From positions 88,040,001 to 88,104,000 of the forward strand of contig OZ024742.1 of assembly GCA_964016885.1 (NCBI GenBank): DNA of 64,000 nucleotides, given 5' to 3'. This DNA is from Eledone cirrhosa (lineage: Eukaryota). A model generated the notes under the pieces. The model saw only the letters and a program-made list of their open reading frames with translations. It made no database searches and was not told the origin of the DNA. Positions 4,686-56,299 of this stretch are shown here, piece after piece; the first letter of the stretch is position 1; each line of letters opens with the position of its first letter. The translations under genes were made by a program, and so were the position numbers.

Positions 4686-4688
<3 letters not shown>

Positions 4689-4849
4689 ATCAAAAGACGG
4701 TTAATAGAGTTCCAAGTGTTTTATTATGCGCATTTTAAATACAATTATCATCGTGGGATGAAATTTGCGTTCTCATCAGAGAAAATAGTGAGACATGATA
4801 TGAAGCTTAAACAACACTTATTGTTCTACAATAAAACTCATCTCCTACT
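4686..4849 (-). mobile_element. 164-bp derivative of the Hydra-like PLE at 45790-49471, retaining both termini
   Basis: 4686-4820 matches 45793-45925 (HHR-bearing 3' end, core CUGAUGA, GAAA mutated). 4820-4849 matches 49440-49470. Confidence 0.8.
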
Positions 4850-4873
4850 GATATATATATATATATATATATA

Positions 4874-6029
4874 TGAAGATAGACATAGAATATTCGAAAA
4901 TATTCTGTATGTTTATAATAAACATTTTGAAGACCTAATCGCTATAGAATAGAATACGTCACGTATTACAATTAGATTCTCGATAAAAGCAAGGGAAGTA
5001 ACCTACGCGTTTCATTTTTATTAGAAATCTTCAGGATTACATATCCAGTGCTTTTATCGAGAATGACACAGCTAGAGACTCATAGAATACTTAGCTGTGT
5101 ACAGGAACTGGTTTGAAAGAGCGGTTGCCGGTCCGGCAGAAATTAGAAATTGGAATAAATGCTCTGAAATAGCGATATATATGTGAAGATAGACATAGAA
5201 TATTCGAAAATATTCTGTATGTTTATAATAAACATTTTGAAGACCTAATCGCTATCGAATATAATACGTCACGTATTACAATTAGATTCTCGATAAAAGC
5301 AAGGGAAGTAACCTACGCGTTTCATTCTTATTAGAAATCTTCAGGATTACATATCCAGTGCTTTTATCGAGAATGACACAGCTAGAGACTTATAGAATAC
5401 TTAGCTGTGTACAGGAACTGGTTTGAAAGAGCGGTTGCCGGTCCGGCAGCAATTAGAAATTGGAATAAATGCTCTGAAATAGCGATATATATGTGAAGAT
5501 AGACATAGAATATTCGAAAATATTCTGTATGTTTATAATAAACATTTTGAAGACCTAATCGCTATAGAATAGAATACGTCACGTATTACAATTAGATTCT
5601 CGATAAAAGCAAGGGAAGTAACCTACGCGTTTCATTCTTATTAGAAATCTTCAGGATTACATATCCAGTGCTTTTATCGAGAATGACACAGCTAGAGACT
5701 TATAGAATACTTAGCTGTGTACAGGAACTGGTTTGAAAGAGCGGTTGCCGGTCCGGCAGAAATTAGAAATTGGAATAAATGCTCTGAAATAGCGATATAT
5801 ATGTGAAGATAGACATAGAATATTCGAAAATATTCTGTATGTTTATAATAAACATGTTGAAGACCTAATCGCTATAGAATAGAATACGTCACGTATTACA
5901 ATTAGATTCTCGATAAAAGCAAGGGAAGTAACCTACGCGTTTCATTCTTATTAGAAATCTTCAGGATTACATATCCAGTGCTTTTATCGAGAATGACACA
6001 GCTAGAGACTTATAGAATACTTAGCTGTG
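4874..6029 (-). repeat. Retrozyme-like array A: 3.7 near-identical 310-bp non-coding units, one HHR per unit
   Basis: Exact 310-bp period. HHRs at 4998-5040, 5308-5350, 5618-5660 and 5928-5970. Confidence 0.9.
5308..5350 (-). ncRNA. Type I hammerhead ribozyme (representative of array A)
   Basis: GUAAUC-CUGAAGA-U-UUCU(AAUA)AGAA-U-GAAA-CGCG-UA-GGUUAC. Stem I is extended by a perfect 16-bp helix (ATTCTCGATAAAAGCA / TGCTTTTATCGAGAAT). Confidence 0.9.
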
Positions 6030-8703
6030 AATACCTTAAACTGCTTATAGACGCTACTAATTCGTTTATACGGAGAGTCAGATGGAAGGCCTACCACCTG
6101 GATAAGAACACCCGTAACCTTCCTGAACCCAAAGAGAAGTATGGCTTCAAAACATACCGAAACCCACCGCCCAACACCTTACTGGACTCCTTTGAAGAGG
6201 ACCTGCTGAAAATGATCAAAAACGTTAAGCTCAGAAAGAAACACCAATGCAGCAATCCATTCTTAACGTCCCCTGATACACTAATAACTAAGATCAAGAA
6301 TGACCCGCACCTCTTCGTCACCTCCGACAAAACCAAAAAGCTGTACAAGATGGACGCGAGTGAGTATAAAAAATTCATCTATAAGGCACTACACAAAGAC
6401 TACAAAAAAGACACCCTCTAGTACCCTAAATGACATAAATAGAGTAGGGAAGGATATAGTCACCAGCTTAGAAATAGAGAAGTACACTAACCCGTACGTC
6501 CCTCTGACGCCTAAATTCTTTCTTAAGGATCACAAATATGACTTTAATGAAAGCCCCTCTATTAGACTAATATGCCCCTCTACATCAGATATAGGTAAGA
6601 TTAGTAAAGTGATCCTTGAGAGAGTACTACTCGAGATTAATAGAAAGGCTAAGGTCTGCCTCTGGGCAACACCGACCAGGTCATAAATTGGTTCACCGAG
6701 TTGCCGGATAAAGCCACCCTGAAATTCATCCAGTTTGATATGGATAGCTACTACGCCTCTATCTCCCCCATACTCTTAAATAAGGCACTTATCTTAGCTA
6801 GATCTAACACTAGCCTCACTAAAAAAGAAATAGACATAATTCTAGCGGCACGTAGAACCATTATACAGTTCGAAGGCTCCCACTGGACCAGAACCAACCG
6901 TCCTGATAACTTCGATGTCACGATGGGGTCCAGTGACTCAGCGCAAGCAACTGACCTGGTCGGGATATACCTCCTACATAAGCTTAGGGAAGAAATACCG
7001 GCCCTACAAGGAGGTGTATATAGGGACGACGCACTGTTTACCGTTAGGAACCATAGCCCCCGTAGGATAGAGAACCTTAACAAACATATACACAGGTTCT
7101 TTATGTCATACGGCCTATCCGTAACTATGGACCTCAACCACAGGGTTGTCAACTTCCTGGACGTGACCCTCGAGTTGAGTACGGGCTTATACAAGCCATA
7201 CCATAAGCCTGGAGAGTGCCTCTCTTATATTAATTATGCCTCCAACCACCCTAAGCAGACTCTCAACTCCATAGTCTATAGTATCTCACATAGAATCTCG
7301 AGGCTATCCGCCAATGAGGACATTTTCAACCAAGCGGCTGATTACTGCAATAGGGCCCTGATAAGCGCCGGCTTTAACCGAGGAATGTCCTACATCCCTA
7401 ACGCTAGCTCTAGAAACCACCCCCTCATAAAACTAACTTTATAGTAAGCCATACCTATAACCGATCACGCGGCGACCTCGTTGAACTCGGATATATTAGA
7501 ATAGATAACCGCACCAAAGATCACGTCCCCGGCGACGGTGAAAGCTGTAGATTACTCAAAATATTCCCCTATTACAAAACCAACAAAGGCGACGGCCTAC
7601 TACCAACGCCTTCCAACCAACATCTTCGTGTACATAAACATGGAAGAGGTAGAAAGAGTGCACCCGAGCATAAAGTGAAAGGGGCACCGAACGGGCGACT
7701 GCGCATTAACACACATAAGAGCGGTCACTTAGATGGAACCACCCGTAGCAAAAGTACAAGGACACGTAATCGCCACCTTAACGTCCTATGGTTCCACCCC
7801 ACCCCCTACTCTCGGAGTGTGGCCTCCAACATACCCCGGATGTTCTTCGAAGCCTTAGAGAAGAACTTCCCGCCCAACCATAGGTATAGAAAAATTCTTA
7901 ATAGGAACAATATAAAAATATCCTTCTCTACTACTCCTAACCTAGCAGACATCATAGGAACAACGAACCACAGTAAGATCACCAAGACACAGCACCTCGA
8001 CACAGACGTACCTACACCTGACAATGACTATATCGGTCTTAACAACTCCCTGGCAGCATCCAATAGTGTAGGCAACGGCATCCGCAGACGCAACCAGAAT
8101 GACCGCGAAATGACTGGGGAACATGCAGAACATGACGTGCGGAATAACAATCGCACAACCCCGCGTGCTGTGGGTTGTAATTGTGCTAACGACAGCTCCG
8201 GTAGCGTAGGTAACAACGTAGGCAGCAACAATGATAGCCTTACCGTGGGAAATAGACGGAACCGCGACAGAAATTGCAACTGCCGCGACAGAGGACGCTG
8301 CCTCCTTAGAGGATACTGCTTGACTGATAGGGTTATATATAGATGCACTATTACTAGCCACAATAGCGTTAAACATTATATAGGGGCCACCTCCGGCCCG
8401 TTCAAAATTAGGTTTCGAACACATCTCCACTCTTTCACAAATAGAAAACTAAGGCACTCCACTTCGCTCGCGGACTATATCACATCACTAAAGGACTTAA
8501 ACATCAGCTTCTCCACGCACTGGGAGATTGTCGGCAGGGCTGCACCGTACAACTTCAAGAGGAAATGCGATCTTTGCCTCATGGAGTTCTACCACATCAT
8601 AACTGCACCCCACGAGCTCATCAACAGTAGAGCTGAAACAGCGATAAGTTGTACACATCGCTTAAAAATATCCTTCTTCAGATGGGTTATGGATGAAGAG
8701 TGA
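6030..8703 (+). pseudogene. PLE reverse transcriptase / C-terminal GIY-YIG endonuclease ORF (frameshifts and stops)
   Basis: SDKT, IQFDMDSYY (motif A), TMGSSDSAQ (motif B), YRDD (motif C), NFLDV, LWFHP, CNCRDRGRC, VIY...HYIG, CDLC. Confidence 0.9.
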
Positions 8704-9000
8704 AATAGTACACTGGATCTCCCTGCAACAAGTCTTAACACCCCGGCGGGCAGGCGCTGCAAAATAACACCCAGAAAACAATCCTTGCATACCAGACCCA
8801 GCCTCAGACAAACGGACGCGGCAAAAAGAAAAAAAAAATTAATAAATTTGTCCAGGAAAGACTGCCCTAACACCGGCCAGAGTTACCTACCTTGACCTGC
8901 TGCAAAGTCAAAACAAGATATTTTTGCGAGCAATGAACCTTGATGTGGATTTAACCCCAAAAACTCTTTCCGAGCAATATAAGGAACACTTGTGATTAGT

Positions 9001-9045
9001 TATGCCCTTGAGAAACCCAACTGGGCGAAATGTACGTAGGTGATA
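9001..9045 (+). ncRNA. Candidate variant hammerhead in the PLE 3' UTR
   Basis: UAUGCC-C-UUGAGAA-A-CCCA(AC)UGGG-C-GAAA-UGUACG-UA-GGUGAUA. U3-A8 core; stem I is imperfect. Confidence 0.5.
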
Positions 9046-9262
9046 TTTTAAATAAACATGTTTTGTTTTAACGGTCTATTCTCCGATTGTTTACTTTCCC
9101 ACGTGCTTACGCTCTGCTAACTCTCTAGCCCACTAAATATTAACACTTCGAATATTTAATACTTCCGGCACTAGTATCGAGCACCTTTGGCATACGCTAC
9201 TTGGCAAATAACTATATGTATCACCTATCCTCCCTTTCTTCTCTTTCTCGATACGTAAACAC

Positions 9263-16314: not shown

Positions 16315-16394
16315 GTCGTAGCTGATTATTGCACACACTCACACATACAAATAAATAAATGCATAATTATGCATATATATATATTGTTTTTTTT

Positions 16395-16640
16395 CTCATA
16401 TAAAACATGAGTAACTTTCAAAAACCAACAAGATGTGAGAAAAACCACAAACCCGCCATCTCACTTCTACTTTTGAAAACCAGAAGAATTGTGAAACCAG
16501 TAAAGGAACAAAATAAATATATATTTTTATAAAAGAAGACTCCAGTTGCATTTTCGATTTCATCTTTTTTCCTTATACTTTCAGTCATGTGGGATACATC
16601 GTTTTTTTATCATTTTGTAAAAAAACCTCACTTTCTAATA
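16395..16640 (+). mobile_element. Solo 3' pseudo-LTR of the Neptune-like family at 24426
   Basis: Diverged reverse-complement match to 24426-24660, with a degenerate UUGAAAA HHR. Ends CTTTCTAATA next to (TA)n. Confidence 0.8.
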
Positions 16641-16849
16641 TATATATGAAAGATTGAAGAATAACATGGGTCGGCTGTGCACAAAGAGATTTATTTCAGG
16701 TATTAACATTTGTTTTATTGATCCGGTGAGTCTAAAGGGTGCTATTCACTCGAAGTTGCGTCACTCGACCTTAAATACTGGATTACCTATAACGATAACT
16801 TGTTATCCCATATCTAGGGCGAGTAAAACTCCCAATATCCATGGACGAG

Positions 16850-17532: not shown

Positions 17533-20611
<3,079 letters not shown>

Positions 20612-23016: not shown

Positions 23017-23074
23017 GTAAATGTAAGTATGTATGTATACGTACATACATACGTGTATACAGACGTACAGTAGC

Positions 23075-23133
<59 letters not shown>

Positions 23134-23568
23134 CAGGTACACATGTATATATGTACGTATCAGTTTAGCGGACGATTATTATAACGCACGCATTGTCCGT
23201 TTGTAAACAAACTGATAGCCTGATTTATGCCGTACGGTGTTAAGGCAACCACGTCACCTTTTTGTTCAACACTGACACAGGAACGATGTACTAGTTTCAA
23301 GCTTGTTAGCTATCGTCAGCACCGTATACCCTTCTGCCAGATGGTTGAACGTCCGAAAGTATATACCTTCCTTATGAAAATTAACAGCTGAGCAGCCTAA
23401 TTTGCATATCGAGTGAGTTCAGTCGGCCAGGCGCACTGAAAACGAGAAAACGATAAGTTGGGATAGAATCAAACGAAATTTCATTTATCACTCTTAGTAC
23501 GGCACTTACTTAAATGTAAGTATGTATGTATACGTACTTACATACATGTATACAGACGTACAGTAGCA

Positions 23569-23656
<88 letters not shown>

Positions 23657-24160
23657 CAGGTACACATATATATATGTACGTATCAGTTTAGCGGACGTTT
23701 ATTATAACGCTCGCTTTGTCCGTTTGTAAACAAACTGACAGCCTGATTTATGCCGTACGGTGTTAAGGTAACCACGTCACCTATTTGTTCAACACTGAGA
23801 CAGGAACGATGTACTAGTTTCAAGTTTGTTAGTTGTCGTCAGCACCGTATACCCTTCTACCAGATGGTTGAACGTTCGAAAGTATATACTTTCCTTACGA
23901 AAATTAACGGCTGAGCAGCCTAATTTGCATATCGAGTGAGTTCAGTCGGCCAGGCGCACAGAAGGGTATACAGTGCTGACGATAGCTAACAAGCTTGAAA
24001 CTAGTACATCGTTCCTGTGTCAGTGTTGAACAAAAAGGTGACGTGGTTGCCTTAACACCGTACGGCATAAATCAGGCTATCAGTTTGTTTACAAAAGGAC
24101 AAAGCGAGCGTTATAATAAACGTCCTCTAAACTGATACGTACGTATATATATATGTGTAC

Positions 24161-24254
<94 letters not shown>

Positions 24255-24385
24255 TATATATACATATATGCATGCTACCCTACGTCTGTATACACGTATG
24301 TATGTACGTATACATACATACTTACATTTAAGTAAGTGCCGTACTAAGAGTGAGAAATGAAATTTGGTTTCATTCTATCCCAACT

Positions 24386-24390
<5 letters not shown>
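23017..24390. repeat. Second, diverged insertion of family B (about 2 units plus an inverted partial unit)
   Basis: HHRs with a CUGACGA core at 23283-23325 (-), 23806-23848 (-) and 23970-24012 (+). Inversion junction near 23959. Confidence 0.88.
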
Positions 24391-24432
<42 letters not shown>

Positions 24433-24992
24433 GTGAGGTTTTTTTTACAAAATGAAAAATAACCGAGGTGTCCTACACGAGTGAAAGTATAAAGAAAAAG
24501 AGATGAAATCGAAAATGCAACTGGAGTCTTATTTTTTTTTTAAATATATATATTTATTTGGTTCCTTTAGCGGTTTCGCAGTTCTTCTGCTTTTCAAAAG
24601 GTGAGTTGAGATGGAGGGTCTGTGGTTTTTCTCACATCTGGTTGGTCTCTGAATGTTACTTGTTTTATATGGAAAAAGTGGCTCGAAATGCCAGGTTTTT
24701 CGAGAAGTAATTTGATTGGTTTGTCAATAATTATAATAAATTTCGCGCCAGGTCGTGTTACAATAGTTCGTCAAAAAAAAGGGGGGGGGGGGGTTGTCAC
24801 AGGTTGTGTTTTCATATATGAGAGTTTGAATTTCTTTTTACTTGAAAAAAGGAGGCTCACGAAGGCTTTTTTTTAGTTGGTTATAAATGGAATTATGGCT
24901 GTCACGTGAACAAATTTTCATTAAATTGTTGTGCCCTTATTTGGAAATCCATTCTCTAGCCTTTTTACAGAATTTTTTCATAAAAAGATAAT

Positions 24993-26013: not shown

Positions 26014-28311
26014 TTAAACCTTATTTAATGTTGGTCTATATTTTTGAATAAACATATTTTCCTTATTTATTCGCATTTGTTCTGTTGTATTGTTAGCGCA
26101 AAGGTAAAATGGGAAGACTTGGAATTTGGGTGTCTTATTACTTGCGCAAATGTCTAGATGTGCACTTATTGGTATCTGTCTCGTGGTTGGATCTCGTAAT
26201 TGTTGGCGATGAACTGTCATTCTGTTTCTGAGTGTGAGTTAAGTTTGTCCTATATAATCTTCATTGCATCCTTTACATTTAATGGCATAAAGAAGATTTT
26301 TTGATGAGCTAGTGAAGTGATTTTTTACAGTAAAATTTTGTCCTGATTTAAATGTATACGTGTTGCCTTCAATGAGGTGAGTGCAGGTTCCACAATTAGA
26401 GCGACCACATTTTTTGATACTTGGTTGTGGGTTTGTGGTAGGTAATTTGGCATTCGTGAGTAATGTTTTCAGTGATGTTAGTTGTCTTTTGCTTTTGATT
26501 ATTTTGTGTGTTTCAAGGGCTTTTTTCATTCTTGGGTTTTGTTTTAGTAGTCGGATGTTATTGTGAATAGTGTTGTAAGCTTCCGCATTTCTTGGGTTGT
26601 GTGTTGAGATATATGATAGAATATTGGACGTACCTTGAATTTGTTTCTGTTTCCGTAATTCATCAATGCCTATTGCTTTAGCCCTTTCTATTCCATTATT
26701 TATTAGTAATAGTGGGTACACTCTCTCGAGTAGAATTTCCTTTAATTCTTGAAGTCTTTTATTTCGCGTTTCATAATTGGAGACAATTGTGCAAATTCTT
26801 CTTGCTAGGTTAAAAGGAATGTTCGTCTTTGTGTGCTTTGGATGGTTGGAGGTGAATAGCAGATATTGTTTGGAATCTGTTGGTTTGTAGTGTATGTCAG
26901 TTTCGATATTTGTGTCTTTTTTTAAGTTAAAGATGTCCAGAAATGGGAGTTGATCTTGGCTGTATTCCATTGTGAATTGGATGTGGTTATTGATGCCGTT
27001 TATTAAGTTTTTGAAATCCTTCAGTTGGTCGAGTGTGTGGGCCCAAAGAATGAGGCAATCATCCAAGTAGCGTTTCCAATTCTCTGATAAATATTTGTGG
27101 AAGTTCAATCCGTATTTTGATTTGGACTGTTCATATATCTGGACTTCTAAGTATGCCATGACTAAGTTGGCATAAGTTGGAGCGGCTTTTGTACCCATCG
27201 CAGTCCCCGATATTTGCTTTTAAGTATTGCTATCGAAATAAAAAAAGTTGTTCTGTAGGAGGAATTTTAATCCCTCAGTGATGAAGCTTTTTTCTATTCT
27301 GTCAGGTACCTCATTGGGATATTTCTCTAGCCAGAATCCTATTGCTTCTAGTCCGTATTGGTGTGGGATCGTATGTGTAGAGATTCACTACATCAAAAGA
27401 CACAATAATAGTGTCGTTGTTGACATGTTTGGGGAGGTGGTTTAAGAGGTCCAGATCGTCTCTTACAAGGCTTGGTATGTGTTTCAGTATTGGTTTAAGT
27501 AGTATGTCTATAAAGTTGCTCAATCTGTGTGTTTCACATTGTGGGCCCGCTACAATTGGTCTTAATTTAAGGTCTGTGGGGTATTGTGTGTTCACGCCCG
27601 CTGAGGTGGATTGTTTACAGGCATCGTTGATTATTGTACACTTGTGGATCTTCGGAAGTCCGTAAAGGTTGCTGGTTTTGTATTCAAAATTTGTTAAATA
27701 ATCGTGTTCCTTTTTAGTTAGGTCTTCCTGGTATCGATAAATCAGTGTGTTTAATTTGGTCATTATTTTTGTGTGCTGGTAGTTTTTTACTCTTTCATAG
27801 TAATTGGTATTTTGTAAGAGAGAGAACATAGAATTTTTATATTTTTCAGCCTCCATAATGACAACAGTACTTCCCTTGTCCGCTTCCTTAATTATAATGT
27901 CCGTATTGTTTTTTAGTTCATGGATAATCTCCCATTCCCTTCGACTCGTGTTGGGTTTGGGTTTAGGTTGCGGTAGTTCATGGTATGGGAAGGTAGCTAT
28001 GTGGTCACCAAATTTGTCCAGAACTCTGTTTCTACCTTTTGTTGGGTTGTAGCTGCTTTTATTCCGTACAATTGATTCGTCGTTATTCTCCTTGTCAAAG
28101 AATTCCTCTGTGAGACGTAATTTTCTACAGAAGTGTGAGATATCGTCATTTATCTCGTTGGGGTTAGGGTAGTGGTGTTGGTGTAATTTCAGACCTTTGG
28201 AGATAATTTTTACTTGTTGGGCTTAGAGGTTTGTATTTGAAATGTTAATTATTTTCGGTTTTTCAAAATCGGTTTGTGCCACCGGGTGTCGTGAGTCCTG
28301 TAGCCTTGGTC
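26014..28311 (-). pseudogene. PLE RT + Zn-finger-like linker + GIY-YIG ORF2 (several lesions)
   Basis: SKGLK, ADKG, YGLPKIHK, LRPIV, FDVVNLY, MGTKAAPTYANL, RYLDDC, CGRSNCGTC, LLY...YIGQT. Confidence 0.92.
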
Positions 28312-29418
28312 TAAAAAATGATTTTTCGGGAATGTTTTTTCATTGGTATTATTATATCTAATGGTATTTCCCCTGTTGTTGTGTGGTCTTGTATAGAAGT
28401 TTCGGACGTATCGAGGTTCGGTTTGTTGATAGTCCGGGTTGTAGATTTGGTTCCTTTGTGTGGGTTGCGATCTACGGTTTTGGAACAGGTTCTGTGTGGG
28501 CAGGGGTCTACGGTTTGGGAATAGGTTTTGTGTGGGTTGTGATCTGCGGATCAGGTCCTGCCTTGTGTTCGGGGATCTTTGGTTTTTGTTAGTTGGGTTA
28601 TAGTTTTGTCTATGGTTTCTGCGATTATCGTTATAGTTTTGCTGAGGGTATGTTGGACGTTTTGTTACTTTTTTTGTTATTTGTTGTGCATGTGGTGTGT
28701 GAGTTTTAGTTTGTTTTAAAAATGGGTTACCTGTATGTTGTTCATTTTTGAAATCCATTTCGTAGTTGTTGAACCAGGTGGCGTTTCTTTCCCATCGCTG
28801 GAGGGATGTTATTTCTTCATCCTCACAGTTTTCTTTCCAACATCTTAGGGTTTTTTTGTAAAGTAGGCCTTCAGAGTGCTTTGAGATTTCTGTGTTCATC
28901 TGTTGGTCGAGTGACTTGAATTTTTCTTCGTTGGAGTTGGCTCTTAATCGCAACAGTTCTATTTCTGTTTTAAATTTTTCCAATGCCATCTTTTCCCTAA
29001 GTCTTTGTTGGTTTTCTGGTTCATTCGGGATGTGTTTTATTTGGAGTTTTTTGGGGAGGATGATTGGGATAGTGTTTAGCCACTTTTCATATATGTCTGC
29101 CTTGCCATTATTTTTTAGGAGATTCCAAAGTGCGAATTTGCGGGCTGTGAGCTTTTGAGTCCATATGTTGATTAGCGTGTTTTTCACTGAGTGGACATCT
29201 CGTAGATTGGGTTCTAACGGTTGTTCCAGCTTTTGGAGCATTACTGTTTCAATGGTTTCGATTAGCTTAGTTAATACTGGAGTAATATTCGTCTCTTGGG
29301 TATTTTCTGTTTCTTCGTGGGGTCCTTTTTTATAGATGTGTATTTGGTCCACTTTGTTGGTCAAAATTGAGAGTTTAGAGGAAATCTCTTTGAGTTCATT
29401 TAAGATGTTCTGGTTCAA
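28249..29418 (-). CDS. PLE upstream ORF1 (389 aa; helical, charged N-terminal half and R/N/Q-rich basic tail)
   Basis: Long open frame in AT-rich DNA, directly upstream of and overlapping ORF2. The nearby ATG is one frameshift away from this frame. Confidence 0.7.
   Translation of the reverse strand: MNQNILNELKEISSKLSILTNKVDQIHIYKKGPHEETENTQETNITPVLTKLIETIETVMLQKLEQPLEPNLRDVHSVKNTLINIWTQKLTARKFALWNLLKNNGKADIYEKWLNTIPIILPKKLQIKHIPNEPENQQRLREKMALEKFKTEIELLRLRANSNEEKFKSLDQQMNTEISKHSEGLLYKKTLRCWKENCEDEEITSLQRWERNATWFNNYEMDFKNEQHTGNPFLKQTKTHTPHAQQITKKVTKRPTYPQQNYNDNRRNHRQNYNPTNKNQRSPNTRQDLIRRSQPTQNLFPNRRPLPTQNLFQNRRSQPTQRNQIYNPDYQQTEPRYVRNFYTRPHNNRGNTIRYNNTNEKTFPKNHFLDQGYRTHDTRWHKPILKNRK
28312..28318 (-). 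promoter_or_regulatory. Putative -1 ribosomal frameshift heptamer U-UUU-UUA
   Basis: In the ORF1 frame (cat ttt tta). The -1 frame runs into the RT N-terminus. The same site occurs at 11321-11327 (+). Confidence 0.7.
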
Positions 29419-29613
29419 TGAGTTGTTGTTTGTTGAGACATTGGTGGCATTTTCGGTCTTCGTGTGGTGGGTATATATTAGAAAGTGAGGTTTTTTTACA
29501 AAATGAAAAATAACCGAGGTGTCCTACACGAGTGAATGTATAAAGAAAAAGAGATGAAATCGAAAATGCAACTGGAGTCTTCTTTTTTTTTAAATATATA
29601 TATTTATTTGGTT

Positions 29614-29651
29614 CCTGTACCGGTTTCGCAGTTCTTCTGCTTTTCAAAAGG
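29614..29651 (-). ncRNA. U3-A8 variant minimal hammerhead of the Neptune pseudo-LTR (also 24564-24601 - and 51104-51141 +)
   Basis: Consensus of the copies: CCUU-UUGAAAA-GCAG(AAGAA)CUGC-GAAA-CCGG-UA-AAGG. Confidence 0.75.
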
Positions 29652-30002
29652 TGAGTTGAGATGGAGGGTCTCTGGTTTTTCTCACATCTGGTTGGTCTCT
29701 GAATGTTATTTGTTTTATATGGAAAAAGTGGCTCGAAATGCCAGGTTTTTCGAGAAGTAATTTAATTGGTTTGTCAATAATTATAATAAATTTCGCGCCA
29801 AGGGCACAAACATTTAATGAACATTTGTTCACGTGACAGCCATAATTCCATTTATAACCAACCAAAAAAAAAGCCTTCGTGAGCCTCCTTTTTTCAGGTA
29901 AAAAGAAAATCAAACACTCATATATGAAAAAACAACCTGTGACAAACGCCCCACCTTATTTGAAGAACTATTGTAACGCGAACTGGTGAACCTCAAACCT
30001 GA

Positions 30003-30033
<31 letters not shown>

Positions 30034-30034
<1 letters not shown>

Positions 30035-31868
30035 GGATGTTTATATAATGTATTTTGCAATACACTTTATGCTTAATTAAAAGCATTTTGAAGACCGTAA
30101 ACTATTGTTTTAAAGTAGTGATAAATTCACTCACTTTGATCTCAGCAAACAGGGGAGAGAGGCCGACAAGACTTGTTTCGCTTTGGTTGAAGCTTATCAA
30201 GGCCAACTGCCCCACCTGTCTACTGAGATCATTGCTGTTATATTCTTATAGAATTCTAGTAAATAATCAGGAGCTGATTATGCAGAGCGGTTGTTGGTCA
30301 GGCAGAAATTAAAAATTAGAATTGGAGCTCTGAAATAGCAATATATATATGGATGTATATATAATGCATTTTGCAATACACTTTATGCTTAATTAAAAGC
30401 ATTTTGAAGACCGTAAGCTATCGTTTTGAAGTAGTGTCAAATTCACTCACTTTGATCTCAGCAAACAGGGGAGATAAGCCGACAAGACTTGTTTCGCTTT
30501 GGTTGAAGCTTATCAAGGCCAACTATCCCACCTGTCTACTGAGATCATTGATGTTATATTCTTATAGAAATCTAGTAAATAATCAGGAGCTGATTATGCA
30601 GAGCGGTTGTTGGTCAGGCAGAAATTAAAAATTAGAATTCGCGCTCTGAAATAGCAATATTTATATGGATGCATATATAATGTATTTTGCAATACACTTT
30701 CTGCTTAATGAAAAGCATTTTGAAGACCGTAAGCTATTGTTTTAAAGTAGTGACAAATTCACTCACTTTGATCTCAGCAAACAAGGGAGATAAGCCGACA
30801 AGACTTGCTTCGCTTTGGTTGAAGCTTATCAAGGCCAACTATCCCACCTGTCTACTGAGATCATTGATGTTATATTCTTATAGAAATCTAGTAAATAATC
30901 AGGAGCTGATTATGCAGAGCGGTTGTTGGTCATGCAGAAATTAAAAATTAGAATTGGAGCTCTGAAATAGCAATATATATATGGATGTATATATAATGTA
31001 TTTTGCAATACACTTTATGCTTAATTAAAAGCATTTTGAAGACCGTAAGCTATTGTTTTAAAGTAGAGACAAATTCACTCATTTTGCTCTCAGCAAACAG
31101 GGGAAATAAGCCGACAAGACTTGTTTCGCTTTGGTTGAAGCTTATCAAGGCCAACTACTCCACCTGTGTATTGCAAAATACGTTATATATGCATCCATAT
31201 ATATATTGCTATTTCAGAGCTCCAATTCTAATTTTTAATTTCTGCCTGACCAACAACCGCTCTGCATAATCAGCTCCTGATTATTTACTAGATTTCTATA
31301 AGAATATAACATCAATGATCTCAGTAGACAGGTGGGGTAGTTGGCCTTGATAAGCTTCAACCAAAGCGAAACACGTCTTGTCGGCTTATCTCCCCTGTTT
31401 GCTGAGATCAAAGTGAGTGAATTTGTCACTACTTTAAAACGATAGCTTACGGTCTTCAAAATGCTTTTAATTAAGCATAAAGTATATTGCAAAATACATT
31501 ATATATACATCCATATATATATTGCTATTTCAGAGCTCCAACTCTAATTTTTAATTCCTGCCTGACCAACAACCTCTCTGCATAATCAGCTCCTGATTAT
31601 TTACTAGATTTCTATAAGAATATAACATCAATGATCTCAGTAGACAGGTGGGGTAGTTGGCCTTGATAAGCTTCAACCAAAGCAAAACAAGTCTTGTCGG
31701 CTTATTTCCCCTGTTTGCTGAGAGCAAAGTGAGTGAATTTGTCTCTACTTTAAAACAATAGCTTACGGTCTTCAAATTGCTTTTAATTAAGCATAAAGTG
31801 TATTGCAAAATACATTATATATACATCCATATATATATTGCTATTTCAGAGCTCCAATTCTAATTTTT

Positions 31869-31869
<1 letters not shown>
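30034..31869. repeat. Retrozyme-like array C: 316-bp units, 3.6 forward then 2.2 inverted
   Basis: HHRs at 30161-30204, 30477-30520, 30793-30836 and 31109-31152 (-), and 31343-31386 and 31659-31702 (+). Inversion at ~31167; TA-flanked. Confidence 0.9.
30477..30520 (-). ncRNA. U3-A8 variant hammerhead with a true stem III (array C)
   Basis: GGCC-UUGAUAA-GCUU(CAACCA)AAGC-GAA-ACAA(GUC)UUGU-C-GGCU. Stem I is extended by a 16-bp helix GATCTCAGTAGACAGG / CCTGTTTGCTGAGATC. Confidence 0.82.
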
Positions 31870-31944
<75 letters not shown>

Positions 31945-31948
<4 letters not shown>

Positions 31949-34900
31949 TATATTAATAAATGGAAACTATATTTATAAAACCATATTGATTTTATTATAT
32001 ACATTTCAAGGGCAACCAAATCAAATTATGGTGCGTTTCATCAAATGAAATAGAGATTATTTTCGTAAATAATTATTAATATACCCGTAAAAAAAGACAT
32101 CCTTAAACGTTGGAGCTTCCTGGATAGTGGATGGAGATAATATTTTATTGAGGGTAATTCAAAGTTATGAGTGATTATGCAAATCATTGTCCGAAAAGTT
32201 GACAAGATAACGGTTTATTTAAATTAAACTGTTGGAAGAAGAGGATATGTAAGGGAGAGAGAAGAAAAGGAAGGAGAAAGAGAGACGAAAGAAAGAACGA
32301 TTATACATAGTGATAGTGAAGATAGTCAAAGTGAACGATGAAATAAATGTTAATGGAAGAATATACAGAGCGTAAATATATCTAAGTGAAAGAAGAAATG
32401 TAAGAATAATATTTAGAATGTAGGGTTGATTACTTTGTGATTATAATATTTATAATTAAAGGATTACCTCAAATGTCTCAAAAATAATATAGAAAACTTT
32501 GAAAAAACGGAAAAAATTCTTGTTAAATCAGATAAAACCAACACTCTTTATGGAATGCAAAAGGTTGATTACAATAATCTTATATTGAAGGAATTATGGA
32601 AAAATTACAAAAGAGCAACCAATGATGACGTTGAACGACTAAATACTGAAGCTTCTTATATAATGCAGGAATTAGGCATCGAAAATAGGACTCAACCCTT
32701 CATACCTAGGAAACCAAAAATGAATTTGAAGGATCATAAAAGAAATTTTGAAATTGAATTACCAGTTAGACTGATTGCACCATCTAAATCGGACCTTTTC
32801 ATACTTAGCAAAAATATTTTAGATAGAATCATACCACAACTTAAGAAAATATCTCATTTAAAATTATGGAATGGAACTAATGAAGTTATTGACTGGTTTA
32901 AGGACATTAAATATAAGCATAACAATAAATTCATTCAATTGGATATTGCTAATTATTACTCATCTATCACTCCTAATTTACTTAATAAAGCCCTTACATA
33001 TGCATTTAAATATACTGATTTATCTAGCAATGAAATGCACATCATCTTAACTGCACGTAAAACATTAATTAAATTTAGCAACCACCTTTGGACTAGATCA
33101 GATAGGGATAACAATTACGATATCACTATGTGGTTATCGGACTCGGCGCAATTAACGGATCTTGTGGGGCTTTTATTAATAATACTTTACATAGGAAAAT
33201 ACAAGAGATGATCGGTGGTATATATCCTGACGATATGCTATTTCTTATTGAAAATAATAATAATTGTGAAATAAATAGGAAAAGAAAAGAAATTATACGA
33301 TGTTTTAATAGCTTTAATCTTAAAGTAGCAGTAGAGAATAATTATAAAATAGATAATCTTTTAGATGTAAATTTACACCTCAATACTGGTCTTTATTATC
33401 AATTTTATAAAATCAAAGATAATTTAAACTATGTTAACTTTAATTCCAATCACCCCAGATCCGTTAAAAACACTATTGTAAATTCTGACCAGCAACGTAT
33501 TACTAGAATTCCAGCGAATAAAAATATATTTGAATATAAGGCACAATATTATAACCAAGCGTTAAGTAGAGCAGGATATAGTAATGAAATTAAATACATT
33601 GATAATAAGGATGTGCCAATTAACTATAACTATAATTATAATTATAATAGGAAACCTCGCACTAACTCGAAAATCAAAAGAAGAAATAAAACTGGAAATA
33701 TAATATGGTTCACTCCCCTTTTCTCATTAAGTATTAAAACTCCAATAGCTAAACTATTTTTTAAAGCTATAGATAAGTGTTTTCCTACGACACACAGGTA
33801 TTACTCAATCTTTAATAGACATACTATTAAACTGTCATATTCCACCACTTCTGAATTTAGCGCAGAATATTATTAGAACTAATAATAGAAACTTAAAACC
33901 TAACCAGAATAGCATTAATACCTCTAGCAATATCCAATATAATGTTACGGCTCCCAATAATATAAATTCAGATAAATGTAATTGTAGAAATAAATATAAA
34001 TGTCCTCTAAATAATAACTGTTTAGTTAAAAATATAGTATACAATTGTAATGTCAAAACCAATGAACATTCCCTTAACTATGTCGGCTCTACCTCCACAG
34101 ACTCAAATCTCGTTTCAATAACCATAAATGTTTCTTTACGAATATTGGTAAAAATCTTCAACTTCTCTATCCAACTTATTATGGAACTTAAAATCCAAGA
34201 ATATTAACTATTCTGTATATTGGGAAAAAATGCTCCCTATGCAAAAAATGCTCCCTTTGTGTTGAAGAACTATTCTTTATACTAAAAATAAGAACTTTAT
34301 TAAGTTGCGTAATGATTTATTTAGTTCTTGTAAACATCGTTTAAACTTAACTTTTAGATGTATATATAAAATGTAATATACGGTAATCTCCTTTACATAA
34401 CGTTTTCTTTATCCAACCACCTACAACTTCATCCCTCAGATTATATCTGTATATGATTCATATATATTTAATTTACATTCTATTATCTCTACTTCATAAA
34501 TATACTTTATATTATTATACTTATCAATAGATTATAACCTTTGAAAGTAACTACTTGAAATTCTTTTAAGAAAAATTTTCTTTGAAAGACTTTCTGAAGG
34601 TTTTAGAAAATTCTTGGTAAATCTTTTGAAAGTTCCTTTGAAAGATATGGAAAAACCATTATTTTCATATCTTCCAATATTTTATATCTTCAAACATTTT
34701 TAATATATATACAAATATTTATATATATATGTGGAATAACATATGGTATATGTTTTAATTATATTCTTAAGATGAATTTTTCTTTAACTTTATAACATTT
34801 ATGACATCTTATAAAAAAACCTATGGTTTATATTTTAATTATTTTCTTAAGATAAATGTATGGCTTCTTATGAAATAACCTATGGTTTATGTTTTAATTA

Positions 34901-36092
34901 TATCCTTTCGTTAAACATTTTTTTAACTTTATAACATTTATGACTTCTCATAAAAAATTTAAAAAAAGAATGTTTTAAAAGTTTTTTTATGTATCCTTGG
35001 AGTCATTTGAGTTCTTAAACAATCCCTTCTAAATTCCTTTATACTTCCTTACTGTTTTTATAATCTAATTAAGTAGTTATTCCTTTGTAAATTCTCGTAA
35101 ATTTTCATAAATTTAGAATTATTTGGATGTTTAAGTTTTGACATACAACTATTAATAAATATAATTTTGCCAAACTTACTTTAATCAAATAAACTATACT
35201 AGATTTTCTCCAATGTAAAATACTATACATTTAAATAATTCATAATCCATAACATACACATCTAAACCAATATATTATTACTAATACATCTTAATATAAT
35301 ATAAATTCTTCTGTTTTAATTTTAATTTTTAATTTTTAATTTTAATATTAATATTAAATTAAATTTTTAATATTAAAATAAATTTTAAACTTTACTTTTG
35401 ATTTTGAATTTTTAATTTTTATATAATTTTTCAACTTATCATTATACATATTATAATCACAACGTATTGAACCCTACATTCTAAATATTATTCTTCCACG
35501 TTAATCTTATTTCTTCTTTCACTTCTTCTTTCACCTCTTCTTTCACTTCTTCTTTCACTTAGATATATTTACGCTCTGTATATTCATCCATTAAAATTTA
35601 TTTCCTCGTTCACTTTGACTATCTTCACTATCACTATGTATAATCGTTCTTTCTTTCTTCTTCTCTTTTTCTCCTTTCTTTTCTTCTCTCTCCCTTACAT
35701 ATCCTCTTCTTCAAACAGTTTAATTTAAATAAACCGTTATCTTTTCAACTTTTCGGACACTCATTTGCATAATCACTCATAACGTTGTATTACCCTCAAT
35801 AAAATATTATCTCCACTATCCAGGAAGCTCCAACCGTTAAAGGTTTCTTTTTATTCCGGGTATGTCAATATTTATTTATGAAACAAATCTGTATTTTATC
35901 TAATGAAAGTGCACCATAACTTGCCTTGGTTGCCCTTGAAATATATATATAATAGAATAAATATGGTTTTATAAATATAGTTTCCATTTATTAATATAAT
36001 GTGTATTTACTCCACTAAATTGTTGGGTGCTTTATATCAGTTATAAAAATGTTTAAGATTGTTGAATACCAACAAATTAAATATAACCTCTG

Positions 36093-36095
<3 letters not shown>
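31945..36095 (+). mobile_element. 5'-truncated Hydra-like PLE with ~500-bp inverted pseudo-LTR arms (~31947-32455 / ~35449-35998) and a ~95-nt 3' tail
   Basis: Arms are reverse complements. HHR-like motif at 35892-35959 (CUAAUGA); TA-flanked. Confidence 0.88.
32460..34375 (+). pseudogene. Disrupted PLE RT + GIY-YIG ORF
   Basis: SDKT, IQLDIANYY, YPDD, IIWFTP, CNCRNKYKCPL, IVY...YVG. Confidence 0.9.
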
Positions 36096-40399: not shown

Positions 40400-40599
40400 T
40401 TTCCAAACTTGCTCACTGTTTCAAAACAAACCTACTTTTTTATATATGTTTTATGTGTATTTGGTGTATACGTTCGTATGTGTGCGGGTACAGGCGTTGC
40501 GTGGGTTTTCGTATGTGTGCGCGTGTTTTTGTGTCCGTGTCTCTATTTTCATACCCATGGGGGGGGGGGGGGTCCGCGCATGCATGTGTATGTAGGTAT

Positions 40600-40975
40600 A
40601 TGGATGCGTGTATGTATATATTTAATTATTGTTGATTTCAATAACATCTGTAATTTATTTACATTATTCTTAACTCTGAAGCCGAGAATCATTCAGTTTC
40701 ATGAATAGAATTTTAGTCTACGACTTCAGTTATACCATAAACGTGGTTTTGTCTTTGCGTGTAATTGTTTTCACCGCTCCACATAGCGATGAATTATCTT
40801 CGTTTTTTTCCGTTCTTTGCCAGGGAACATCTCGAAGAACAAAAGTATCGCAACCTGTCTTCCTGTGGTTGCAACATTTTTCAAAATATTTACTTCTGCG
40901 GTCACAGATTGATTTTTTTAGTTTCAGAAGATCCTGTTAAGGGTGAAAGTAGCGATTATTTGCTTAAAATTGAAT
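40600..40975 (+). mobile_element. Diverged copy of the arm of the 56300-58127 element
   Basis: Shares ACCATAAACGTGGTT, AAAGTATCG and TTCAGAAGATCC...GTGAAAG. The same family's tail lies inverted at 40062-40146. Confidence 0.75.
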
Positions 40976-41209
40976 CTGTTGTTTTAATGAATATATATAT
41001 ATATATATATATATATACGCATACATATACATATATTATTCGTATAAATATGCAACATAAATACATTATGAATATCCGCAGTTAAAAAAGCATATAATGC
41101 TGAAACCGGTACCATTATTAAATTCGGAAATATCCACTTTATAAATAATTGTTTTCATGTTATACTGAAAGTATGACTTCAGCATTCCCTACTGAAAAGA
41201 TTTATATAT

Positions 41210-45777: not shown

Positions 45778-45789
45778 ATATATATGTAA

Positions 45790-48700
45790 TATAAGATCAA
45801 AAGATGGTTAAAGGAGTTCCATATATTTTATTATGCGCATTTCAAAAACAAACATCATCACGCAATAATATTTGTGTTTTCATTAGATAAAACAGGAGAA
45901 CATGATATGAAGGCTAAAAAACACTTGTGGATAGTTCAGTTTTAAATCAACATATGAAAAGTGGTTTTAGATTGATGTGCGATATTGGGAAAAATATTTT
46001 ATTTAGAGAGGGGGGAGGATGAAAAGGGAAGGAGATGAGAGGGAGAGATGGGTGATAGAGAGAAAGAGATAGTTTTTATAACTGAGAGGAGATATATTTT
46101 TTACATAGAGAGGTTGAAAACCGTTGGAAGATACTGTATAAATTAAAAATTTTGAAAATTAACGAAGGGAGGATATGTGCGAGGAAAAAATATTTTATTT
46201 AGGGAGGGGGGGGGAAGGATGAACAAAAGGGGGAGGAGATTAGAGTGAAGGTGGAGAGGGAGAGATGGGTGATAGAGAGAAAGAGATAGTTTTTATAACT
46301 GAGAAAAAGATATATTGTTTTAATATAGAGAGGTTGGGAACCGTTGGAAGATAATGTATAAATTAAAGGAATTTGAAAATTAACGAAGGGAAATTATGTA
46401 TGAAGATAGAGAGAAAAACATAATAATTGTGGGTGAATATTCTAACGTCAAAAAAAGAAATGTATGTATTGTGGCAATTTCAAAATTAACGAAGAGAAAA
46501 ATTATTAAGGTTTGTGTGTAGAAGGATTTGAGAAAAATAATGTGAAGTTAAAGTTTGTATATTGATTGAATTGATAATATATGCGAATAAAGAGTTAATA
46601 TGTATTAATAATGAGTTCGTTGATGGGGAGAAAAAAATAATAATAAGTTAAGGATGAAATTGAGATTAAAAAGATTTATGATAGAGAGAAAAAATAATAA
46701 TGATTGCGGATGAATATTCTAATGTCAAAACAAATGTTATGATTTTACAAGGAGAAGATAGAATGAGGGTAATGAGTAAACGAGTATTATAGAGTGTATA
46801 ATGCCCTTTAAAGTAAGGTAGATGGGTATATTTTAAAGAGGTGTATGTATATGTGCCTTTCAGAAAAGATTCTAAATTGATAAAGAATTGAATATTAACT
46901 GTATACTTTGTGAAAAGTTCTATGGAATGTATGCAGGCAGATAGAAAACAAATCTGTGCGTCTATTTATTATAGAATCTAGGTTAGAGATAATGGTAAAT
47001 TTTTCATTTAGGCAGAGATTACAGATTTTAGATAGAGAGCTGTTCAAGTATGAGGATGCAGAAGAAATCTTCTTCCAAAAGATGGTATATTTAATGTTTT
47101 TGTCTTTTAAGGACCATATGAGTTCTGAGAGAGCAGTGTTAGTTCTTTTAAGTTTGTATTTGAAAGATGAATGATGATTATAGCGACGAGCTTTAAAAGA
47201 GGTGGAAGTGGAGCCAAAATAGGTGAAGGAATTGGTGCTAGTTATAATTTTACATTCATAAATTAAGTTTTTATCGAGACAATGGTTGTTGAGAGGACAT
47301 TTATTTTTAATGCGGCAGTTGCAATTAGAGAGATTATTAATGAGTAATCTAGTGTTATCTATAGAAGGAATTGGATTGGAGAAGTTGTTTGCGATAGGAA
47401 TAATAGGAATAATAGTTTCTTGATTTAGAGTTGGATTATGAACATTTAGCGAAGTTGTGTTTGACGTTGTATTTGGGTTTACAGAAGTTAGCCTAGGGTT
47501 TATAATGACGTCGGGAGTACTATTACTGTTATTATGAAATTCAATATTGGAAGGAAGAGATTTAGTATTTAGTATTTTATTGTTGTGTTTAGAGATGATG
47601 TTGGAAATATTGGAGGATGTAGAATACGAAAATTTGATGGTGTGTTTGTTAAATATTTTACTATAGATATGTGAGGGAGGGAAGCATTTATTTAAGGCAC
47701 TAAAAAATAATTTAGGAATATTGTTATTAATAGAGATGGAGAAAGGAGCATTATACCAGATTATGTGTTTGTATCTAGGTCTTTTATTAAAATTATTGGA
47801 ATGGTCATGATTAATTATTCTACTGTAAGTTTTTCTAGAATTTGTTTCTTTATTATATTTGATTTTATCTGGATAGCCGGCTTTAGAAAGTGCGTTATTA
47901 TAGTAATTGGCGTTAGCATCAAAGATGTTTTTATTAGAAGATATGTTAGATATTCTATTTCCAATATTATTAACTATAGCATTCTTGATATTGGTAGGAT
48001 GGTTAGATTTAAAGTTAACATAATTAAGGTTCTCATTGTTTTTATGGTAAGGGTAATATAGGCCAGTGTCAAAATTAAGAGATACATCCAAGAAATTAGC
48101 TAGTTTGATACTATTATCAAATTCAATTTTTAGGTTATGTTGGTTAAAGAGATTACGTATATTGTTCTTAATAATATTAAGTTTAACTATATTGCAATTT
48201 AGGATAGTAAAGAGTCCATCGTCACGATAAATTCCACCGCGAAGTTGAGGAATTTTCCGACTCAAAGAGTTCAAAATGAAGATACCAATTAAATCAGTCA
48301 ATTGGGATGAATCGGATGCTCCCATTGTGATGTCGAAGTTGTTAGAGGTATCGGCTCTGGTCCAATATTCGTTGTTGAACTCTAGGATGGTTTTACGTGC
48401 GGTGAGGATAATGTGAAGTTCATCTGTGGTGATGTCAGAATATTTAAGTGCGAAAGATAGAGCATTATTGAGAAGTGAAGGCGAAATGGAGGAATAGTAG
48501 CTGGCAATATCAAATTGAATAAATTTTAGTTTGTTTTTATTATCCAATTTGTTGAACCAGCCAATCACTTCAGAAGTACCAAAACATAAATTTAGGTTCA
48601 AAGAAGAGCAATTAGAACTAACCTGTGGGATAATCCTATCCAAGATGGCTTTACTAACAACCCCCAGATCAGATTTAGAGGGGGCGATTAATCTAACAGG

Positions 48701-49471
48701 TAGTTCAGTGCGAAAATTGTTTTTGTGATCCTTGAGATTTATCCTCGGAGTTCTTGGGAGGAATGGTTCGGTCTTTTTTTCAATGCCAAGTTTTGACATA
48801 ATCTCATAGGCTTCAAGGTTTATGCATTCTAAATTTTCATGGTTGGTTTTACGATACTTTTTCCTAAGTTCCTTTAGGATAAGGTTGTTATAATTATCCT
48901 TGGAAATACCATATAGGTTATTGGTTTTGTCAGAGTGGACTAAAACATTTTTTGAGGAATTTAGGTTAGAGATTGTGTTCTTGAGATTTACAAGGTGCTC
49001 TTGTCCTTTGTAAGGGTATCTCTTGAATTTAAGATTTTTTATTATTTTAGTTAATTCTTCCTCGAATTGTACTAGTTTTTGTTGGAAGGAGGATTTCGTC
49101 TAGAATTAAAAAGATGATCGAGGAAGTTGTGTTCTTTGGTATGAAAGTTCCATTTTAGGCGCTGGTCATAGAAATAGGCTGTCCATCTAAGTCTTCTTAC
49201 GAAGGAGTCAGTTTTTTCAATAAGAAGTTTGGTGAATTCAGATTTACCAGGTATAGGAATGTCTTTAGTTGAATTGGTTATGTTGTAATAATCCATGTTG
49301 TAGAAGAAGAGGTGAAGGACCATCAAAAGGTATCCAATATGAGAGTAAGCGCTCAACCGTTAAGGAGAAAGTTAATGTAGGAGGTGAGTTTTATTGTAGT
49401 ACAATAATGCAATGCAGATATGCAAATATCTGCATTGCTTTATTGTACTACAATAAAACTCACCTCCTACA
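45790..49471 (-). mobile_element. Full-length Hydra-like PLE with a terminal 5' hairpin
   Basis: Single long ORF, an HHR-like motif at 45825-45893, a 3' UTR with purine-rich direct repeats (~45990-46400), and a fold-back at 49377-49471. Confidence 0.92.
46895..49296 (-). CDS. PLE RT + GIY-YIG protein, ~800 aa, with one frameshift in an A-run at ~49076-49080
   Basis: MDYYNITNSTKDIPIP...; SDKT; FDIASYY; TMGASDSSQ; YRDDGL; CNCRIKNKCPL; LIY...YFG; CNLC. Adding one A joins the 94-aa ORF to the frame of the 634-aa ORF. Confidence 0.85.
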
Positions 49472-51064: not shown

Positions 51065-51272
51065 GCATGTGAGAAAAACCACAGACCCTCCATCTCAACC
51101 TCACCTTTTGAAAAGCAGAAGAACTGCGAAACCAGTAAAGGAACCAAATAAATACATATATTTAAAAAAAAAAAAAGACTCCAGTTGCATTTTCGATTTC
51201 ATCTCTTTTTCTTTATACTTTCACTCGTGTAGGACACCTTGGTTATTTTTCAATTTGTAAAAAAAACCTCAC

Positions 51273-51280
<8 letters not shown>
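51065..51280 (+). mobile_element. Solo Neptune-like pseudo-LTR with a U3-A8 HHR
   Basis: Reverse-complement match to 24426-24637; sits inside (TA)n. Confidence 0.88.
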
Positions 51281-51311
<31 letters not shown>

Positions 51312-56194: not shown

Positions 56195-56299
56195 GTAAGT
56201 CCTTATGGGAAAAAATACCATGCAGTTTTAATGTTTAGATTCGGAAGAAACAAAATAAATGAATATAACTGCCTCTCTCTCCATATATATATACATATA

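Follow-up and report, generated by a model that had tools for sequence, protein, structure and literature searches.

Two related arrays of predicted hammerhead ribozymes that carry an insertion signature of Penelope-like elements

Metazoan non-LTR retrozymes are described as tandem units of 150-450 bp with one type I hammerhead each, a GC content below 50%, no open reading frames (ORFs), a self-paired fold, and Penelope-like elements (PLEs) in the same genome (PMC7229834; 10.64898/2026.07.22.740005). Two arrays that we analyzed here, A and C, share all of these features. Like the axolotl families HHR_Amex1 and HHR_Amex2 (PMC7229834), they are sister families in which helix III differs in sequence and helix II has a U-U pair at its base. 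The element class and the U3-A8 variant of the core are already known, the published link between retrozymes and PLEs comprises common ribozymes, co-occurrence, and pseudo-LTR homology, and a PLE origin of retrozymes was proposed in a 2026 preprint. Family C is unlike the metazoan retrozymes described in these sources in its U3-A8 core and its 4-bp helix III (typically 1-2 bp), and both arrays are unlike them in having tails, head-to-head arms, and (TA)n targets. In the main texts of the two sources the word 'tail' does not occur and 'inverted' occurs in one reference title only (PMC7229834; 10.64898/2026.07.22.740005), and a literature search, mostly of papers available without subscription, gave no mention of retrozyme tails or inverted arms.

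PLE hammerheads such as those of Schistosoma resemble A and C in their type I fold, palindromic loop III, and U3-A8 core, and resemble C in the G10.1-C11.1 pair (PMC4209133); about 1,300 cases of the C3-G8 to U3-A8 covariation are reported among Schistosoma PLE motifs (Cervera and de la Pena, PMC4209133). These hammerheads flank an ORF, whereas the A and C motifs lie in ORF-less tandem arrays (PMC4209133). The minimal PLE hammerheads moreover have a helix III of at most 1 bp, an unpaired base before position 10.1, and a helix II of 7-8 bp, compared with 3-4 bp in A and C, and neither family falls into that class: C has a real helix III of 4 bp, a helix II of 4 bp, and no bulge or unpaired base after position 9, while A has a short helix II with the U-U pair (PMC4209133). 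Multicopy, head-to-tail, non-autonomous PLE insertions with a microsatellite bias are described for Chlamys elements such as MRC1 (Craig et al. 2021, PMC8557442), but these are algal and are reported to have 3' sequence in common with an autonomous family, and most Chlamys elements are without canonical hammerheads. The closest biochemical parallel to what we propose for A and C is PAc from Anolis (Frangieh et al. 2024, PMC11167929). The purified protein initiates reverse transcription internally, at a pair of sites flanking the tail (+111-118), requires RNA to +172, about 55-60 nt further 3', uses AT-rich targets, and extends both target strands, and ribozyme cleavage is dispensable (PMC11167929). 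PAc differs in being autonomous, in belonging to Poseidon, and in starting inside a stem-loop that is AC-rich and not homologous to its target (PMC11167929), unlike A and C, whose first end lies in a TA run matching the target.

Arrays and their hammerhead cores

The window, an AT-rich stretch of 64 kb of Eledone cirrhosa DNA, contains many (TA)n tracts and broken PLE ORFs. The two arrays are arranged as follows.

4865..6029, minus strand: array A, 3.8 units of 310 bp each
30025/30034-31869: array C, period 316 bp, two arms in opposite orientation
30034..31167, minus strand: left arm of array C, about 3.6 head-to-tail units of 316 bp
31166..31869, plus strand: right arm of array C, about 2.2 units, inverted
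30003..30033: (TA)n target tract to the left of array C
31870..31943: (TA)n target tract to the right of array C

The arms of array C meet head-to-head with a 2-nt overlap (GT, 31166-31167). No ORF of at least 100 aa overlaps array C, and the GC content across 30001-32000 is 0.32. Based on the core motifs, strand-specific G-U pairs, and UUCG/GCAA tetraloops, the ribozyme strand is the minus strand in array A and in the left arm of C and the plus strand in the right arm; the original prediction had written its sequence blocks on the plus strand.

The window contains a third hammerhead family, array B (466-bp unit, 17636-20611), with a diverged sister insertion (B2) at 23018-24388. It has a CUGAUGA core, a palindromic ACUAGU, and a GUA site; in array and sister the arms are inverted, the ends lie in (TA)n, and there is a tail of some 60 nt. 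The array B unit contains the octamer ATGCAAAT. Short related elements between (TA)n tracts at 4686-4850 and 45780-45926 show, by eye, a decayed hammerhead-like motif with a long helix II and a GCGC loop III. An inverted pair at 56299-58039 (about 680 bp, 92%), which contains a duplication of 138 bp, has a related copy at 40575-41010, and the descriptor scan found no hammerheads there.

The ribozymes of A and C are located at the following positions, with the second unit of C given in full.

5034, 5344, 5654, 5964, minus strand: CUGAAGA cores of array A
5004, 5314, 5624, 5934, minus strand: GUA sites of array A
30454..30546, minus strand: ribozyme arm of C unit 2 (basal helix, inner helix, and 4-bp helix I)
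30531-30546 paired with 30454-30469, minus strand: 16-bp basal helix of C unit 2
30481..30516, minus strand: type I hammerhead core of C unit 2, with the U3-A8 core UUGAUAA at 30516-30510
30165, 30797, 31113 (minus strand) and 31382, 31698 (plus strand): equivalent predicted cleavage sites in C

CUGAAGA, helix III ACGCGU, and a GUA site are present in all four A units, UUGAUAA and a GUC site in all six C copies, and a 16-bp basal helix of different sequence in both families; both hammerheads agree with their description in the original prediction. C unit 2 has a 4-bp helix II with G10.1-C11.1, GAAA, and helix III ACAA-GUC-UUGU, with cleavage predicted after C17 at 30481. Three of the six C copies are intact (cores 30200, 30516, and 31148), and the others carry lesions (GAAA>GAAG at 30832, GAAA>AAAA at 31663, and a helix III mismatch at 31347). 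A type I core, (C/U)UGAN(G/A)A...GAAA...NUH with 3-8 pairing, was found in 4/4 A and 4/6 C copies, and the topology is that of type I, with helices II and III closed and helix I open-ended. By sequence, the A and C motifs are type I hammerheads, for which self-cleavage is predicted. Complete hammerheads occupy at least two consecutive units in both arrays (C cores 30200 and 30516; all four A units), as required of non-LTR retrozymes, and on such DNA-sequence criteria A and C class as metazoan non-LTR retrozymes.

When both strands were scanned with a descriptor, 18 matches were obtained: A and C had 4 each, array B had 6, B2 had 1, and the other 3 lay elsewhere. The scan missed two C copies, which carry core changes. 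No Rfam match in the window reached the gathering score, and all six C copies matched Hammerhead_HH9 below it (21-25 bits versus 52; E 0.004-0.045). The minus-strand ribozyme arms gave fold z-scores of -4.8 for A and -7.0 for C. UUGAUAA in C is the same U3-A8 covariation that has been published for PLE hammerheads. When family C variants were collected from contigs of four of the six listed public DNA runs (2, 814, 23, and 13 contigs), none of the 36 listed variant positions fell within the 13 core positions, and U3-A8 is thus a trait of the family rather than decay of the window copy. At seven variant positions in the basal helix, the minus strand keeps the pair in five and the plus strand in three; one of the remaining variants breaks a pair and the other pairs only if there is a coupled change. 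The terminal repeat of a Neptune-type element (29472-29990, with copies at 24420-24938, 16390-16647, and 51067-51288) also bears a U3-A8 hammerhead-like motif, TTGAAAA...GAAA...GTA, and the PLE beside array A has a similar motif, TTGAGAA, in its 3' UTR near 9006. Judging from these sequences, U3-A8 cores seem to be common in the host genome.

The original prediction contrasted a dimer-type A with a monomer-competent C. Helix III of A, ACGCGU, is a perfect palindrome (intermolecular duplex -7.5 kcal/mol), and helix III of C, ACAAG-U-CUUGU, is an interrupted one with no fold by itself (0 kcal/mol). The contrast is overstated, as C also forms the dimer duplex (-10.1 kcal/mol). In nearest-neighbour energies, which ignore the tertiary core of the hammerhead, the predicted active fold of the monomer is less stable than the ensemble by 4.5-7.5 kcal/mol in C and by 9.2 kcal/mol in A, a gap that arises from possible mispairing of the U3 core with helix III. 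Invertebrate retrozymes with a 2-bp helix III and fungal PLE motifs with a long helix III are reported to cleave as monomers (PMC7229834, PMC4209133), and dimer cleavage is reported for one of nine retrozymes tested (Li et al., 10.64898/2026.07.22.740005). Monomer cleavage of C is plausible by analogy, and family C looks able to cleave both as a monomer and as a dimer; dimeric PLE hammerheads have reportedly been the subject of work by Lunse et al. Two helix III variants, ACAG-AGCU-CUGU and ACAG-GGCC-CUGU (the latter read across a contig/window join), are single-contig loose ends from runs X5 and X1 and keep the 4 bp through compensatory change, with the loop still palindromic. At position 30485, the commonest letter in run X2 breaks the fourth helix III pair, which speaks against strict conservation.

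One conserved block in a common unit

We compared the A and C units by global alignment, which scored 227, whereas 500 shuffles that preserved dinucleotides scored 74 ± 11 (maximum 113). Of the 317 alignment columns, 183 are identical and 8 contain gaps. All four ordered blocks that the original prediction had named as a common scaffold were found in both arrays and in the same order; one of them, the 8-mer TTATAGAA, is weak alone (3/11 of its exact matches in the window lie outside the arrays). The features common to both families are the following.

31797..31816, plus strand: spacer hairpin of 8 bp, with a GCAA tetraloop in C and UUCG in family A
30584..30667, minus strand: 84-nt block in C unit 2, spanning the internal TA run and the tail plus a further 45 nt or so downstream
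30268-30351, 30900-30983, 31196-31279: other C copies of the 84-nt block

The spacer hairpin covaries between A and C, with two double changes and one one-side change (alignment columns 18-37). Array B is at most a weak candidate for a third member of this scaffold family. It has TGCC-GACC, a 14-nt stem II span, and a similar spacing in common with A and C, but its pairwise scores fall within those of the shuffles (118 versus 107 ± 8; 116 versus 102 ± 7) and the best match of an A+C profile (E = 0.026) derives mostly from the hammerhead. A scaffold-pattern search of metagenomes gave 17 loci with a GC content of 53-64%, which we rejected as chance matches by their GC and their short blast matches (at most 28 nt in 16 loci and none in one). 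Scaffold patterns returned no homologues in viral contigs or prokaryote genomes.

Divergence between A and C is not uniform, in agreement with the original prediction that the scaffold is constrained separately. We found that 66/84 columns are identical in one block of 84 columns, compared with 72/138 in the remainder (Fisher p = 1e-4; best-window permutation p = 4e-4, 5000 permutations), and that all 13 nt of GGTCTTCAAAATG are identical between A and C. The run contigs of family C point in the same direction, though not significantly, with 6 variable positions out of 84 in the block versus 30 out of 247 elsewhere (p = 0.23). The helices predicted within the block (AGAGC/GCUCU, and GCUAUU, whose partner lies in the preceding spacer) show neither variation nor covariation. 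The block begins at the insertion ends in (TA)n. Of the three causes of constraint originally suggested, recognition by the reverse transcriptase (RT) is favored by this coincidence, and promoter function and circle stability less so. By analogy, the block is likely an initiation or binding signal for a PLE RT. The first part of the block is matched exactly over 15 nt at 2507-2521, at the junction of two PLE fragments, a match possibly due to chance (blast E 0.056).

That the block is conserved because it acts as an internal promoter or because the endonuclease recognises it as DNA, and not as an RNA signal for the RT, is unlikely in our estimate, though it deserves serious consideration. PLE terminal repeats carry promoters (PMC6765202), the Penelope tail is reported to be needed for endonuclease recognition (PMC11167929), and the block lacks covariation and has one small hairpin that is held by G-T pairs, on the plus strand only. 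A position that starts at the insertion terminus and runs 3' for about the length that the PAc RT needs argues against such a role. It may be compatible with our main reading and would alter the role of the block only. Newt satellite 2 has a promoter of the snRNA type.

The original prediction further held that the ribozyme turns over as a separate module, and here our data disagree: identity in the ribozyme arm (45/95) is no different from that in the non-block remainder (72/138; p = 0.51). Three distances are the same in A and C: 139 nt separate the block from the core, 30 nt lie between the start of the basal helix and the core, and the stem II span is 14 nt. The distance from the core to the GGTCTT block (99 nt versus 104 nt) differs because helix III is about 5 nt longer in C. 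Counted in a hand-set register rather than in the MAFFT alignment, all 16 pairs of the basal helix are kept, with 6 pairs the same, 2 with one-side and 8 with both-side changes, and none broken. RNAalifold did not recover this helix from the MAFFT unit alignment owing to a one-base slip of its 3' strand there. Leaving the core aside, 19/44 positions on the 5' side of the arm are identical, compared with 27% by chance (p = 0.016). As these conservation and covariation comparisons span two families, each paired change counts as one event. Together, these sequences suggest that the ribozyme likely drifted in place, from C3-G8 to U3-A8 and to a longer helix III, rather than being replaced.

Drift has to be weighed against an exchange in which the scaffold was kept and the ribozyme module swapped, for example through a template switch that imported a U3-A8 hammerhead from another family or a PLE terminal repeat, which we judge improbable. 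The arm is indeed far less conserved than the block (45/95 versus 66/84, p = 3e-5), cores of the U3-A8 type occur in other window elements (near 51108 and, by eye, near 29640 and 9006), helix II of C appears by eye closer to that of array B than to that of A, and the junction of array A with a PLE (see below) suggests template switching between different RNAs. The identical distances, the retained basal pairs, and the background level of arm identity count against a swap, as do the absence of a mosaic boundary in 20-column windows of the A/C alignment and the failure of blast with the C unit to find another donor within the window; with two families compared, a swap with a close paralogue would nonetheless preserve the register.

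Insertion ends and neighbouring elements

PLE insertions are described as having an inverted 5'-truncated copy, a tail of 30-40 bp on one end, and microsatellite targets, with (TA)n targeting found in PLEs including Hydra (Craig et al., PMC8557442). Array C displays all three signs of a non-autonomous PLE insertion (inverted copy, tail, and microsatellite target), and array A shows the (TA)n target and itself occupies an inverted position.

31839..31869, plus strand: tail of 31 nt, up to 41 nt with an ambiguous TA run from 31829, at the right end only

On the ribozyme strand, the 3' ends of the left arm of C and of array A stop at the homologous TA run inside the unit, where genomic (TA)n takes over, and the right arm of C continues for another 31-41 nt before its (TA)n. 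The same pattern of a short and a long end is seen in arrays B and B2, at about 60 nt. The minority alleles of C comprise six that are shared and 29 out of 35 that are private to one unit. Three linked variants are common to one left-arm and one right-arm unit, suggesting a multimeric heterogeneous template or later gene conversion and not one monomer circle.

These ends bear on the idea that the units are detached PLE pseudo-LTRs that were inserted once and expanded locally as minisatellites through unequal crossover, their ribozymes being relics with no RNA cycle. Local amplification from PLE termini has been proposed (Li et al., 10.64898/2026.07.22.740005), and the lesions in the core or helix III of three of the six C ribozymes, together with the many private alleles, are as expected in decay; moreover, no matching autonomous element emerged from our searches. 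Against this stand the multi-unit arms, each of which ends at a precise PLE-type terminus, so that the multimer most simply existed before copying, and the three linked variants common to units of both arms. The invariant core and the helices that vary with pairing kept in the run contigs likewise point to selection on RNA structure in family C. We consider local expansion of relics very unlikely. That the inverted arrangement and the junction of array A with a PLE are assembly artefacts (fold-back chimeras) is more remote still: tandem and inverted PLE structures are known to trouble assemblies (PMC8557442), but the arms are not mirror copies, with several percent difference among their units, an asymmetric junction, and ends that differ by the tail, and arrays B and B2 repeat this geometry.

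Two neighbouring PLEs were compared with the arrays.

6030..9262, plus strand: frameshifted PLE of Hydra-clade type, with RWK, DKT, CxCx5C, and GIY-YIG-type motifs
26239-29523: Neptune-type ORF with DKG and CX2-5CxxC motifs (the label is a reading of the motifs)

The 5' end of array A joins the first of these PLEs head-to-head at 6029/6030, and relative to the other Hydra-type ORF of the window this PLE is without about 10 N-terminal codons. Array A occupies the position at which such PLEs usually carry an inverted copy of their own 3' end, yet it lacks similarity to that end: blast gave no match between the A and C units and the 3' end of the PLE beside A. Co-integration of two RNAs is the boldest reading of this junction, the alternatives being a nested insertion followed by a deletion, or misassembly. 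Array C was tried as a pseudo-LTR of the Neptune-type ORF and rejected, because that element has its own terminal repeat (29472-29990).

Hydra-clade PLEs are described by RWK, DKT replacing DKG, CxCX5C, a C-terminal GIY-YIG, and a (TA)n target (PMC8557442). The window contains four Hydra-type ORFs, including the one joined to array A; assigned to the clade by motif scan only, they have CxCx5C in 4/4 elements, DKT in the three with the N-terminal part, and RWK in the one beside A. Pfam gave no family for any of the 11 ORF pieces, and the PLE clade labels therefore rest on motifs and on look-alikes in the Atlas, where clusters bearing PF26215/GIY-YIG resemble the window PLE ORFs and did not pinpoint a partner. 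An open Hydra-type ORF of 734 codons lies at 46895-49099 (minus strand), with a stop dividing it from a short piece of the N terminus; upstream of it, at 49377-49470, is a long inverted repeat. Its homologues number 152 proteins, with 30-41% identity among the best 120 of the 152, and a partner was not pinpointed among them either. Viral contigs contained no relatives of the RT beside array A. Another Hydra-type PLE, at 31944-36095, has a 5' inverted copy of its 3' end (31938-32406 versus 36009-35538, 89%) and shares one (TA)n tract with the right end of array C. Neither the block nor the scaffold showed homology to other PLE ends within the 64-kb window, the three longer scaffold motifs had no match in the one searched supplement of Craig et al. 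(PMC8557442), and neither the window nor the metagenome, viral, and prokaryote collections yielded an autonomous element with the block.

A proposed copying cycle and its meaning

Based on these sequences and on analogy with described PLEs, we think it probable that A and C are sister non-LTR retrozyme families that derive from one ancestral unit and are copied into (TA)n by the RT and endonuclease of a PLE, with the conserved block as the signal and a ribozyme that drifted. In this cycle, the array would be transcribed on the ribozyme strand, and the hammerheads would cut the multimers to unit length, probably aided by dimer pairing of the self-complementary helix III. The monomers may then circularise like other retrozymes. 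A PLE protein, most likely of the Hydra clade, would bind the 84-nt block and nick (TA)n, and its RT would start internally at two sites, one on each side of the tail, which would leave a short end, a tailed end, and arms joined head-to-head, by an analogy that crosses clades (PAc being Poseidon and the candidate here Hydra). We propose that the sequence of the block is conserved because the protein reads it, and that the helices drift by compensatory change because only their pairing is selected. Against this reading stand the absence from our searches of an autonomous element with the scaffold, the non-significant block signal within family C, the lack of covariation in the helices of the block, the energy gap of the active fold, and the single cleaving dimer among the nine tested by Li et al.

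A more specific version, which we put forward tentatively and regard as possible rather than probable, is that a Hydra-clade PLE protein reads the 84-nt block as a portable signal, uses two internal starts, and copies two RNAs into one (TA)n cut, while the C lineage moved toward monomer-competent cleavage with palindromic loops kept. Copying of two RNAs would explain the head-to-head place of array A on a near-full-length Hydra element. If true, it would name both the mobilising clade and the cis-signal for animal retrozymes.

The main useful content of our analysis is that the conserved block matches PLE-type insertion ends. The A and C arrays themselves bear the PLE insertion signature, which bears on how animal retrozymes are recognised and integrated. 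Setting the two families side by side reduces the candidate cis-signal to a stretch of about 84 nt, which is within reach of an existing in vitro PLE assay, and the pair is a natural experiment in which C3-G8 and U3-A8 cores, with a short and a long helix III, are set in one scaffold.
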